Below, one piece after another: positions 6,001 through 9,000 of a stretch of DNA of 26,967 bases. The position numbers are program-made. Within the stretch, counting starts at the first letter, position 1. The number at the start of each line of letters is the position of its first letter. The stretch covers positions 1 through 26,967 of the IMG/VR virus record IMGVR_UViG_2541047926_000013. The stretch is one strand, 5' to 3'. This DNA comes from a virus. Lineage: Duplodnaviria > Heunggongvirae > Uroviricota > Caudoviricetes.

Positions 6001-9000
6001 TCGACAGATTCCATCAGGGAGCGTTTGCCGCTGAAGTCATTATCTTCAAAATCAGCGGTCTGGTTTGCTTCAATCGTGATTTTACGGACAGCCGCAGCCG
6101 CTTTTGTTGCCTGAATAGCGTCACCATTAGCATCAAAGCCTACAAGGTAGTCGGCCCAGTCTTCAATCCATTCTGCCAGTGACTTCTGGGAGTTACGCTC
6201 GCCGTTAACAGACAACAGAGCAGAGAACGGTGCTGTCTTTTTCAGTTTGAGAGTGGCGGTGTTATCTGCGTGACCTGGTTCATCAATAGTACCCAGGTTA
6301 AGCACACTGACGGCACGCATATTATCAGCATCGATAAAGCAGCGGGTGCCTTCATCTGCAAGATCTTTAGAATAACGGGTAAAATCATCGATGCTGGCAG
6401 TGGAAAGCGCGCCACGGAAACGGAAGCGATTTAAATTAAATTTTTCCAGATCATGAATGCGGAAATTCTCAGGCAATGCCACAGCATCGGCACCAATCTT
6501 ACTGATAATTTCATTAACACCCTGAGCAGAAATAAGAGCATGGATTTGATTAATTGCGGTTGCGTCTAAGTTCTGAGACATAATAAGTCCTCACTATATA
6601 AAGATATTCAGTGATGAGATAAATAATCAGTTAATTAAGAACGATATTAATGACCTGCTGCGCGGAGTTTTCCGTCAGGTTCACCGGCAAGAGTCAGTAA
6701 TTGTCCCTGGTCTTCCTGCAGAATAGTCAGGCGACCACCGCGATTGACATACATCGGCGTTTCGGTGGTGTCTTCTTCAGAAATTTTCCCGCGGTTAGTC
6801 GGGCGAACATATGAGAGTTTGTGTTTGATTTTCACACGGTTCTCATCAAACGGTTCGATTTCCAGGTTGAGCGAGACCTTACCTTTGGTTTTCGTGTTCA
6901 TCACACCGGAAGCGACTTCACTGAGAACAGCGCCGATTTTGGTTTCAAATACGCCGCCGTCCAGCTCCCCGATAAATGCCTGCACATCAGTACTGCGTTC
7001 GCTAGCCATTTTGCTGCTCCTCATCATATCGACCCTGCAAGGTCGGTTAGTTTCTCCACAAAACAGAGAAGAACACCTGCGGTGGTAGCCGCCCGGATGG
7101 ATTGGGTTATGAGCCCGTCGTCCGGTGATGCTCTTCTCTGTTTTGTAAAAAGAGCGGTACCAGCCGGAAGCAAGTGTACAAACTGGTACCGCGAGGACTA
7201 CACACAGCATAAAGTTGTGGTGCCGGGTGCCTCCCGGTGCCTGGCGAAGGTTGCACACCAGGCGGGTGGGTATCCACAGAAGGTCGACTGTCAGCCTCAA
7301 CCTTAACCCGCGTGCGCTGAGCCGCATTCACCACAACGCTAAGGATTCTCTCTGGTTGAAAATACTTAGCTGTTATGTGCCTGTCTTTTCACCACTTCAG
7401 GCTCGGTGGTATCTTGGTGTTTTCATATAGCCAAGAAGGAAATAGTTATGACCAAAGAAGAAAAAATTCTTTATTTATTCCAACTATCGGTTAAGACTCA
7501 CACTGCATATCAGACTGCTGCCATGACATCAGATAAAAATTACAGTACGTCAGAAAACCCGATAGACGACATAAGCAAGCTTTACGATAAGTTCGAAGCA
7601 CTACTCGATAAAAAGTTTGCTGAGGCTGGGCTTGAGTGATTGTTGAATAATCGACAAAACCCAACTTAAATTTTCGTCAGTGGGCTCGATGCCATGTGCG
7701 GTGAGCTCACTTTTCAAAACTCCAAGCAATTCAGAGCTGATTTTCAATATATCTGCTTGATTTCTAACTATTCCCACTTTTTCCTCCCTTGGTCTACGCG
7801 CGGTCATGTTTTACGCCCAAACGACTTCACAGTTATTGTTTAAAATCTGGACTTTCATTTTGTTCTTTAACCTCCAGATACGGGCGTTTAATGGCCCCGC
7901 CGAACAGCTCTTTTCCGCAATAGCTGCAATGTCTTTCGCGCATCAGCCTGCGCATTCAGCACAACTCTAAAAACAAATGTAGGATATCCAACATGTGAGT
8001 GTCAAGAGTTTATATTGGTTATCCTACATAAAAAGATAGGCTCATAAAAAAACCGGGGATACCCCGGTTTTGCGATAGTGAGGAAGATGTGTCAAAAATC
8101 CATTATTACTTGTTTGACAAGACCAACTATTCTGCAGTTCTCACCGCATTCAATAGTTTTATAGTTAGGATTTAGTGGGACGAGATACCTGTTCGGCCAG
8201 TCCTCAACAAATTTTTTGAGTGTCGCTTCTTGCCCACCATTGATATGGGCAACAACGATTTTTCCGTTAATACACTCTGTATCAATAATATCTGGCTCTA
8301 CGATAACGATAGAACCTTCTGGTATCGATGGTGAGCCGAGGGGATTGGTCATTGAATCACCACGGACCCGTAGTGCAAATGCCATTTCTGATACAAGGGC
8401 GGTAGTATAAACCCACTCTTCAGCATCTTCTTTCCTGACACCAGGCTCCGTCATTGTCCATGAACCCGCCTGAACCCACGAGATGAGGGGGACTTTTTTA
8501 ACTGCGAATATTTCAGGTTTTAGATTTATCTTTGGTTCAGGCGAGCCTTTTCCGCTAACAAGCCACAGAGGATCGCATTTAAGTGCGTTGGCTAGGGCTT
8601 GAAGGTTGGCTCCATTTGGTTGGTAGTCGTCCTTTTCCCATCCAGTAACCGTGACACGGTTCACACCAGTCAAATCAGCCAGTGCTTGTTGTGTCAGGTT
8701 CAGTTCTTTTCGCCTTTGGCGAATACGATCACTCATGTTCATCATGTAGGCAATCCTACCACATGCCCATGTAGGATTCTTGACATTGGTATGTTGGATA
8801 TCCTACATTTATGCTTAACGTAATTTAACGGGAGACAGAAATGCGGAAATCCGACGTGATTAATTATTTCGGCGGAGTTTGTAAAACCGCCGAAGCCCTA
8901 GGTATTAAGCATCCTTCTGTTTCAGAGTGGCCTGAGATTATTCCTGAAGGCCGAGCGTACCAGTTAGAAAAAATTACTAACGGGAAACTGAAAGTTGACG

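Follow-up and report, generated by a model that had tools for sequence, protein, structure and literature searches.

Leader RNAs of lambdoid phages

The 6S RNA made from pR'-tR' of phage lambda and the StxS RNA of Stx phages are short, promoter-proximal terminated transcripts of late-operon leaders that are read through under the action of Q, and the terminated product of such lambdoid leaders can act as a small RNA (sRNA). The lambda N leader carries an RNase III hairpin and is, with the sib site, another of the close known systems, and HK022, a lambdoid phage without N function, has structured RNAs near its early promoters (putL and putR), put having two stem-loops. One promoter of Gifsy-1 gives rise to both the sRNA isrK and a read-through mRNA (PMC7380047). 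The STnc100/PasD family is described as prophage-borne and often multi-copy in two reports (PMC5331693; bioRxiv 10.64898/2026.05.13.724894), the former of which gives 11 STnc100 copies for EDL933, at least ten of them with RNA-seq reads and one (STnc100_4) verified by northern blot, with family members ending at their own terminators and accumulating as discrete RNAs.

The window analyzed here is a whole 26,967-nt stretch of a Caudoviricetes virus (IMG/VR record IMGVR_UViG_2541047926_000013), to which all coordinates refer. Its GC-rich segment at 7031-7300 is a non-coding minus-strand RNA leader of the early-left (pL) operon of a temperate phage. The anatomy of this leader follows from three structures, their conservation and covariation, their strand, their non-coding nature and their genomic position, and from this anatomy we infer a mechanism. 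The leader is probably a composite one, in which an STnc100/PasD sRNA domain (7214-7337 together with an additional hairpin, P0) is followed by an attenuating terminator and then by a branched structure, here called the Y element, ahead of the yfdP-like gene.

With described STnc100/PasD members the locus shares a full-length model match, the P1 helix, the junction GGUGAAU, the 3' hairpin CCGGGAGGCACCCGG and the terminator, whereas the window copy has the extra 5' hairpin P0, lacks a promoter of its own and lies in a pL leader, the others being found downstream of Q, tRNA genes or stx. As in lambda 6S and StxS, a long operon begins with a promoter, a structured RNA and a terminator, but this operon is the early-left one and no antiterminator was recognized for it; to our knowledge the phage's own Q (PF03589, 14575-15369) is not known to act there. 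The lambda N leader and sib likewise have a long duplex in the pL transcript between a promoter-proximal signal and the ribosome-binding site of the first gene, in contrast to which the window is without nutL and N, Y has a conserved branched apex, and cleavage is only predicted. HK022 is similar in being a lambdoid phage without N function that has structured RNA near an early promoter, but there is no sequence likeness, the architecture is another one, and here a terminator separates core and Y. A single transcription unit that yields a terminated short RNA along with a long read-through mRNA spanning several genes is also the pattern of isrK, to which there is no homology. An sRNA-to-leader base pairing of the isrK type was looked for by eye, giving a 7-bp match only.

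Layout of the locus

A leftward early promoter-like site (pL), TTGACA-18 nt-TACATT, was located by consensus scan on the minus strand at 8005-7976, and a rightward site at 8780-8809 is its mirror on the opposite side of the cI-like gene. Measured from pL, the GC-rich segment is about 670-940 nt away, in agreement with the 700-900 nt given in a preliminary description of this DNA. Directly after pL, alignment places on the minus strand a partial copy (5' half) of a related, mEp460-type RNA core at 7870-7966, which is near-identical to mEp460 (L006, about 2345-2445), has the P1 5' strand GAGUUGUGCUGAAU with no matching 3' strand after it, and is overlapped by ORF40 (7833-7955). Between the plus-strand ORF63 (7448-7639) and the complete core lies a 35-nt element (7376-7410) with about 94% identity to a stretch that lies ahead of sieB in P22, lambda and HK620. 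On the far side of Y, the conserved minus-strand linker AACUAAC precedes a small hairpin with a UGCAG loop (7030-7052 in all, the hairpin itself at 7030-7045 by folding) just 5' of the ribosome-binding site, and this linker, with a hairpin of other sequence having the same loop motif, stands upstream of several different first genes. The Shine-Dalgarno sequence GAGGAG (7017-7022) and the yfdP-like gene (ATG at 7009-7007, 120 aa) occupy 6647-7022 on the minus strand, and are followed by a yfdQ-like (DUF2303, 5757-6581) and then a yfdR-like gene (HD phosphohydrolase, 5092-5691).

No N-like antiterminator had been evident at first inspection, and the same was found with Pfam and PHROGs for the ORFs between pL and the yfdP-like gene: for ORF40, ORF68 and ORF63 Pfam returned nothing, and in PHROGs they matched families of unknown function, none of them N-like. 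A candidate boxA was also considered and rejected. The consensus of boxA is CGCUCUUUA-like, and the tail of the terminator in the window, CGCUCUUUUUAC, resembles it, but the resemblance is not conserved, homologues having CCCUUUUU, UCCUUUUU or GACCUUUUU at this place.

Both inverted repeats named in the preliminary description are present. The 15-bp perfect repeat (7058-7072 with 7132-7146) lies within 25-nt arms (7058-7082 and 7122-7146) of 84% complementarity, and the 10-bp perfect repeat (7154-7163 with 7183-7192) is followed on the minus strand by UCUUUUUAC (7153-7145). Among 1000 dinucleotide-preserving shuffles of 7031-7300, none contained a 15-bp perfect repeat, and 19 had a perfect repeat of at least 10 bp. 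In folding, the 429 nt from the yfdP-like start to the plus-strand ORF gave -175.4 kcal/mol (z = -6.55), Y alone -50.3 kcal/mol (z = -7.8) and the terminator hairpin -20.5 kcal/mol (z = -4.75). Of the readings offered earlier, a structured regulatory RNA has been borne out by an STnc100 family member and a second conserved RNA structure with covariation, while a terminator cluster is right for one hairpin only: that at 7154-7192 with its U tract is a conserved intrinsic terminator, whereas the 15-bp repeat is the stem of Y.

The STnc100-like core

The Rfam model RF02076 (STnc100) matches the minus strand at 7145-7367 over its full length (1-206) with 49.1 bits, the gathering score being 47 bits and the E-value, taken over the whole window, 6e-8. 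That the window copy is just 2 bits over this threshold is due to hairpin 1, which is fully compensated, GCGGCUCAGCGCACGC replacing CCCCCUGUGCGGAGGGG; close relatives score lower, with 39.5 bits in SfV, 35.1 in ST64B and 29.2 in e14. In the core proper (7214-7337, minus strand), helix P1 (7329-7337 with 7214-7222) closes over five hairpins, which include the further GC hairpins noticed earlier at 7200-7300, and directly 5' of it an inverted repeat folds into P0 (7338-7370, GCUAAGUAUUUUC / GAGAAUCCUUAGC, minus strand), a position at which ST64B, phage P1, L155 and L202 have a hairpin of other sequence. The core carries the GGUGAAU junction, invariant in 59 sequences, and the 3' hairpin, which is identical at 7223-7243 and is followed by the P1 3' strand and by the terminator 7154-7192 with U5; the invariance of this hairpin in the alignment is by construction, because it served as the search key.

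Across the 59 homologues, the core has 99.3% of its cells paired and reaches a covariation score of 0.312, compared with at most 0.188 in slid controls. Pairs of P1 and hairpin 1 have changed on both sides, for example GC/UA, CG/UA and AU/GC, and the window copy keeps every one of these pairs, with compensated changes in hairpin 1. Related phages have unrelated inserts in place of the core between the same P1 strands, so that the leader does not depend on the specific sequence of the core. In late regions, four to five core copies can form tandem arrays, and in phage P1 the core has no terminator after it.

In many family members a sigma-70 promoter adjoins the P1 helix, but the window copy has no such site: the consensus scan found no promoter for it on the minus strand between 7370 and 7975, where only weak hexamers were seen by eye. 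A discrete sRNA would hence need to derive from pL transcripts. In the leader of ST64B, downstream of CI, a short ncRNA (STnc1310) has been described upstream of the STnc100-like core, and it rises jointly with the next two genes on peroxide and nitric oxide shock (PMC7067206). Our search of the literature on STnc100, ymfH, ST64B sRNAs and STnc1310 found such expression data but no functional study of the leader.

Terminator and Y element

The predicted intrinsic terminator (7145-7192, minus strand) consists of a 12-bp stem, the arms of which lie within 7154-7192 and include the 10 perfect base pairs, a loop of 15-19 nt, and the tract UCUUUUUAC. It escaped a simple terminator scan, in which loops are limited to 8 nt. 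In 111 of the 113 early-type Y copies, a hairpin with five or more consecutive T lies ahead of Y, and its stem sequence differs from copy to copy. This is a G+C-rich hairpin directly followed by a U tract and kept as a structure, the makeup of an intrinsic terminator; its activity is a prediction from sequence, and since the loop is long (15-45 nt in homologues), its strength is uncertain.

Y occupies 7053-7153 on the minus strand, as defined by folding and covariation, and the 15-bp repeat is its stem. The basal stem comprises 20 bp (7127-7146 with 7058-7077), extended to 25 bp when the U tract of the terminator pairs with GGAGA (7053-7057), and it bears apical hairpins A (7093-7125) and B (7078-7092). 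Of the cells in its pairs 96.2% are paired, compared to 41-50% in slid controls, and 10 pairs have changed on both sides, compared to 0-2. The conserved G-U pairs fit only a minus-strand RNA, which fixes the strand, and the minus strand also folds better than the plus strand (-50.3 vs. -46.2 kcal/mol). No Rfam family corresponds to Y, a permissive scan of 146 nt giving miRNA and ribozyme noise with E of at least 0.4. By comparative evidence, Y is a well-supported and very common RNA structure that is absent from RNA databases.

The stem, with its 20-25 bp kept by compensatory changes, has the approximately 20 bp or more of near-perfect duplex that characterize an RNase III hairpin. A simple role as processing site does not account for the conserved apex, which comprises CCCAAUCCA and the tip of hairpin A, GGG-CUCAUAA-CCC (7104-7116, minus strand), a tip that shares its three G-C pairs and 7-nt loop with the anticodon stem-loop of initiator tRNA. 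The invariance of this tip in the alignments is partly by construction, because the region served as search key; it was found independently by BLAST in Klebsiella phages.

Distribution among relatives

Many enterobacterial prophages carry the terminator and Y in front of their first early-left gene, and of 5426 complete E. coli genomes 2786, about half, have a match to at least a part of the leader. Among 97 early-type Y copies, 74 stand ahead of yfdP homologues and the remaining ones precede rdgC-like, yfdR-like or xis-like genes, the linker and small hairpin being always kept. In L070, L077 and L105, the same pL promoter adjoins the P1 helix of a related core, to which the terminator and then Y succeed.

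Alternative explanations

A 226-codon minus-strand ORF (6647-7327) starts at 7327, crosses the region and runs in frame into the yfdP-like gene, and PGAP as well as phage records annotate proteins in the region, which in K-12 e14 is called YmfH and elsewhere a hypothetical protein. That it is a coding or decayed coding sequence is nevertheless extremely improbable. Among 33 distinct homologous sequences the ORF varies in length from 7 to at least 140 codons, the stop in ST64B coming after 7; variable columns fall on the three codon positions as 37/44/45, with no third-position excess; the alignment has gaps of 1, 2 and 7 nt; an intrinsic terminator would lie within the ORF; and the compensatory base changes fit RNA. 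The YmfH-like reading was therefore rejected on ORF conservation and codon-position statistics, and the earlier judgment that the region has no credible ORF holds. Tests of the two refuting conditions named in the preliminary description found no decayed coding sequence and did find compensatory conservation in the repeats. We give an equally slight chance to a site that acts as DNA, be it a recombination site, as the preliminary description had suggested, an origin or a protein-binding palindrome. Phage identity does break at the edges of the elements, two examples being the P1 strands and, in comparison with mEp460, position 7192, but such breakpoints are expected from homologous recombination at any conserved sequence; read from the opposite strand, the conserved G-U pairs would turn into A-C mismatches, the orientation to the downstream gene is fixed, and related phages have their integrase and excisionase genes elsewhere. 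A recombination site thus found no direct support, the G-U pairs and strand-specific covariation pointing to RNA. Within an RNA reading, the succession of structured junction, terminator and gene, together with the invariant GGUGAAU, would suit an attenuator in which the multi-hairpin core senses a ligand or factor and decides on terminator formation. This seems very improbable, as no alternative pairing between core and terminator was seen, the genes that follow vary greatly, unrelated inserts can take the place of the core, and the core recurs in the late-region tandem arrays.

It would be decidedly unlikely, too, that Y is a tRNA-derived mimic which, through a tip imitating the anticodon stem-loop of initiator tRNA, engages a loop-recognizing factor, resulting in control of the first gene or in a decoy. 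Such a factor could be the 30S P site, MetRS or a VapC-type anticodon nuclease. The tip is kept across many genera, and in Klebsiella phages, the copies of which the Y covariance model finds at 36-41 bits, a Y-like element ending in CAGGCC(G/A)CCA follows tRNA-Arg immediately on its 3' side, within a tRNA array. However, no tRNA was found by ARAGORN in the window and ten related loci or by the Rfam tRNA model in the window, the tip stem has three pairs only, the decayed copy in K-12 e14 lacks the loop sequence, and the motif was itself the search key. Antitermination of the put type, by which the core or Y would bind the transcribing polymerase in cis and render it terminator-resistant in place of the missing N, appears quite unlikely as well, although the elements lie near the promoter of a long operon without N, pL directly adjoins the core in L070-type phages, a conserved terminator must somehow be passed, and Y has two adjacent apical hairpins. 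The comparison with the HK022 pL and pR leaders revealed no likeness: the core motif had no match within 3 mismatches in HK022 24000-30000, and blastn-short of 7000-7460 against HK022 27600-32000 returned only chance matches of 8-13 nt (E of at least 1.5). Unrelated inserts also replace the core in related phages, and the HK022-type mechanism raised in the preliminary description is unsupported as homology. Moreover, Y lies downstream of the terminator and not upstream, family members elsewhere stop at their own terminators as discrete RNAs (PMC5331693), and TPM values drop along the ST64B leader from about 2250-2370 to 1085-1276 and then to 188-224 (PMC7067206).

A model for the probable composite leader and its implications

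For the favored composite pL leader, we infer partial termination, action in trans and processing at Y. On loss of the cI-like repressor, transcription from pL would enter the leader, and a share of the transcripts would halt at the terminator, leaving a short stable RNA with the STnc100-like domain that may act in trans, as is thought for other family members. The terminator would at the same time shield the downstream genes from leaky transcription. Transcripts that read through would fold into the long Y helix, its basal part using the U tract of the terminator; this helix is long enough to serve RNase III as a substrate and may determine how stable the message of the first gene is or how well it is translated, a role comparable to that of the hairpin in the lambda N leader. 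A bolder and rather unlikely extension, which we put forward tentatively, would make the terminator and Y, with the linker and the UGCAG hairpin, an undescribed promoter-proximal module that gates the early-left operon of N-less lambdoid phages and does the job of nut/N or put, in which the initiator-tRNA-like tip contacts a host factor and the STnc100-like core is one of several interchangeable cargoes in the same P1 stem.

If the composite leader is correct, the STnc100/PasD family gains a new setting: within the pL leader it is one insert among several in the same stem, which bears on the origin and movement of prophage sRNAs. Y would then sit where N-less lambdoid phages must get past an early terminator, a question that can be tested in K-12 e14, SfV and ST64B. 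The "hypothetical protein" region of many phage and E. coli records, and YmfH in K-12 e14, would be better read as structured RNA. In a screen, a ymfH clone was reported to set off a retron toxin (bioRxiv 10.1101/2020.06.22.160242), and as a lead only, this triggering might reflect the RNA rather than a protein.

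Genetic Setting of the Leader

The immunity region of this phage comprises a cI-like repressor gene (8092-8745, minus strand), a cro-like gene (8841-9038) and a CII-like gene (9066-9650), together with two promoter-like sites that mirror each other, pL (8005-7976, minus strand) and pR (8780-8809, plus strand), both of the form TTGACA-18-TACATT. Leftward from pL follow ORF40 (7955-7833), ORF68 (7807-7601), the convergent ORF63 (7448-7639, plus strand; phrog_2605), an ORF-free stretch (7012-7440), and yfdP-like (6647-7009), yfdQ-like (DUF2303; 5757-6581) and yfdR-like (HD phosphohydrolase; 5092-5691) genes. 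A Q-type antiterminator gene (PF03589) is located at 14575-15369. As the preliminary description had stated, nothing N-like is evident: none of the ORFs between pL and the yfdP-like gene gave such a match in Pfam or PHROGs. The nearest phages are SfV, SfII, SfIV and vB_EcoM-720R4, which share 96-99.6% identity over the region, while ST64B shares about 78%. SfV (L001 9047-9235) and ST64B (L002 6732-6920) have, rightward of the immunity region, matches to isrK and C4 antisense RNA, neither of which reaches the gathering score in the window. Upstream of ORF63, whose orientation against pL is that of sieB, 35 nt (7376-7410) are about 94% identical to the sequence preceding the sieB start of P22 (L004 2501-2535); lambda, HK620 and numerous P22-like phages have it too, and this element might serve anti-pL morons as a common promoter or leader.

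The structured segment first noticed at 7031-7300 is real. The ORF-free stretch as a whole folds at -175.4 kcal/mol (z = -6.55), and both perfect inverted repeats described in it were recovered: one of 15 bp (7058-7072 with 7132-7146), whose arms can be extended to 25 nt at 84%, and one of 10 bp (7154-7163 with 7183-7192), directly followed on the minus strand by UCUUUUUAC. In dinucleotide-preserving shuffles of the segment, repeats of these lengths were reached in 0 and 19 of 1000, respectively.

An STnc100-Like Core with Its Terminator

Scanning the whole window with Rfam gave a single above-threshold match, to STnc100 (RF02076): the minus strand of 7145-7367 aligns to the full model and scores 49.1 bits, where the gathering score is 47. 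The terminator of this model corresponds to the 10-bp repeat plus UCUUUUUAC, and the further GC hairpins mentioned earlier belong to its core (7214-7337). The score is low because hairpin 1 of the window copy, a fully compensated variant, is counted as mismatched by the model. Core homologues were gathered from IMG/VR through a conserved 3′ motif, and among the 59 distinct cores aligned, 99.3% of cells are paired and the covariation score is 0.312, compared to at most 0.188 with slid partners. Strong covariation is found in the closing helix P1 (7329-7337 with 7214-7222; for example GC/UA 27:17, CG/UA 27:25, AU/GC 28:28) and in hairpin 1 (CG/GC 44:14, 41:14, 41:15). The 3′ hairpin is invariant in this alignment by construction, which is not the case for the invariant GGUGAAU.

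STnc100 has been published as a prophage sRNA family related to PasD (bioRxiv 10.64898/2026.05.13.724894), and the available part of a report on EDL933 gives RNA-seq reads for 10 of its 11 copies and northern blot verification for one (PMC5331693); the present leader is a new setting for this already catalogued family. Tandem arrays of 2-5 STnc100 copies, scoring 61-165 bits each, adjoin tRNA genes in prophage late regions (L134 2265-3380, L188 4349-5513, L178 6983-7660). T-arm-like motifs, GGTTCGATTCC and GTCCGTTCAATTCGGAC, occur in the hairpin region 5′ of helix P1 in three loci (L155, L010, L039), where ARAGORN calls no tRNA. In the window, a 600-nt gap without ORF (15370-15975) separates the Q gene from a DNA methylase gene, which is the usual site of the late promoter and leader, and the Rfam scan gave no STnc100 match there.

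A Y-Shaped RNA Element

The 15-bp repeat falls outside the STnc100 match and belongs to a Y-shaped structure (Y; 7053-7153, minus strand), in which a 25-bp basal helix carries two hairpins (-50.3 kcal/mol, z = -7.8). The basal helix begins with the terminator's own U tract pairing to GGAGA. GGG-CUCAUAA-CCC forms the tip of the first hairpin and has the sequence of the initiator-tRNA anticodon stem-loop. Searching with this apex motif as a pattern retrieved over 120 viral contigs and 24 species-representative genomes from across the Enterobacterales. When the structure derived from the window copy was applied to an alignment of 49 distinct sequences, 96.2% of cells were paired compared to 41-50% in slid controls, a percentage somewhat favoured because the window copy is itself among those sequences. 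The double-change counts are stronger evidence: covariance analysis across homologues yielded ten pairs changed on both sides, versus 0-2 in the controls, with a covariation score of 0.176 versus at most 0.071. The Pantoea copy keeps the long stem with quite different sequence, and conserved U-G and G-U pairs are compatible only with the minus-strand RNA.

No Rfam family matched Y in the window scan or when 146 nt were scanned permissively; it is an undescribed yet very common RNA structure. Its covariance model gives 118 bits for the window copy, 83 for E. coli K-12 e14, 45 for Pantoea, 36-41 for partial copies that adjoin the 3′ end of tRNA-Arg in Klebsiella phages, and 37 for the phage P1 copy just 5′ of a core. 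The Klebsiella copies (L003 3009-3074 and nine similar loci) lie downstream of Q and have an outer stem of 6 bp, GGCCUG/CAGGCC, with (G/A)CCA after it, resembling an acceptor end, and no tRNA is called in them. In phage P1 (L005 2421-2628, between upl and tciA), an STnc100-like core whose P1 helix is compensated (GUUGCGGUG/CACCGCAAC), and which has no terminator after it, comes immediately after the Y-like hairpin; the pair is part of the ban operon, where tRNA genes and a dicF-like region surround it.

Modular Architecture of the Leader

Of the early-type Y copies, 111 of 113 have a hairpin and a run of five or more T on their 5′ side; 74 of 97 lie ahead of a yfdP homologue and the other copies ahead of rdgC-like, yfdR-like or xis-like genes. 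Y is invariably followed by the linker GUGGAGAAACUAAC and then by a small hairpin with UGCAG kept in its loop. The STnc100 3′ motif lies within 400 nt upstream in only 36 Y copies; of the remaining copies, some carry wholly dissimilar inserts between the same P1 strands (GUUGUGG ... CCACAAC), and some lack the core and have a short terminator hairpin between pL and Y. Terminator and Y make up the constant unit, with the core behaving as an exchangeable cassette.

At three loci (L070, L077, L105) the window's own pL promoter abuts P1 of a core of the type found in phage mEp460. In the window, 7966-7870, right after pL and corresponding to about the first 100 nt of its transcript, is near-identical to the 5′ half of this core type. 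Beyond it come ORF68, ORF63 and a complete core of the STnc100 type, so that the window leader seems to have arisen by insertion or recombination between two cores. Within 7833-7966, the start of ORF40 is the AUG inside the GAAUGCG junction of this half core, so that ORF40 might not be a real gene.

Alternative Readings and YmfH

An ORF from the AUG within GGUGAAUGCGG (7327) continues in frame into the yfdP-like gene, and similar ORFs are annotated in many records, as YmfH in K-12 e14. However, among 33 distinct homologous sequences its length ranges from 7 to at least 140 codons, variable columns show no codon-position bias (37/44/45), the alignment contains gaps of 1, 2 and 7 nt, and the ORF would have to cross the intrinsic terminator. 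We thus rejected a protein-coding reading, which has hardly any probability left; the initial view that no credible ORF exists holds, and ORF lengths and codon-position counts likewise oppose a decayed coding sequence. In e14 (L261 3100-3411), YmfH overlaps a decayed version of the core-terminator-Y leader that immediately precedes xisE-intE, and is likely a mis-annotation. A ymfH clone has been reported to trigger the retron-Sen2 toxin RcaT (bioRxiv 10.1101/2020.06.22.160242), an activity that might stem from the RNA. The likely mis-annotation and the terminator-Y module are concrete, testable additions.

Of the possibilities raised in the preliminary description, a structured regulatory RNA and a terminator are each correct in part, as an STnc100 match, Y and a terminator were all found. 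RNA-based antitermination as in HK022, in which the leader would act like a put site, has no support from homology, is weakened by the interchangeable core and by the position of Y after the terminator, and appears improbable. A riboswitch-like reading is opposed by specific evidence and is very unlikely; the same applies to a DNA site, which is as implausible as a coding function. A tRNA-mimic role for the Y tip, suggested by its conserved loop and the tRNA-adjacent Klebsiella copies, is improbable.

A Proposed Partial-Termination Model

The anatomy, strand, conservation and position of the leader are established, and from these we infer how it may work. Once repression is lifted, pL transcripts would enter the leader and a share of them would end at the terminator, which would release a short RNA with the STnc100-like domain and shield downstream genes, xis and int in e14, from leaky transcription. 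Read-through RNA would fold into Y. The length of its duplex is sufficient for RNase III, and Y may govern how stable the first gene's message is or how well it is translated. Without N, polymerase may pass because the terminator, with its long loop, is leaky, or may be helped by some further factor or by the RNA itself.

Transcriptomes of ST64B lysogens fit this model. Their leader downstream of CI contains a short ncRNA, STnc1310, on the 5′ side of the STnc100-like core; it rises together with the next two genes on peroxide and nitric oxide shock, and TPM drops along the leader from ~2250-2370 to 1085-1276 and 188-224 (PMC7067206). Placed by its distance from the cI gene at L002 ~4382-4455 in ST64B, STnc1310 maps to a short RNA whose end is a second terminator (CUGGCGG...CCGCCAG and U5) upstream of the core, and a terminator of this type directly precedes Y in L031-type phages.
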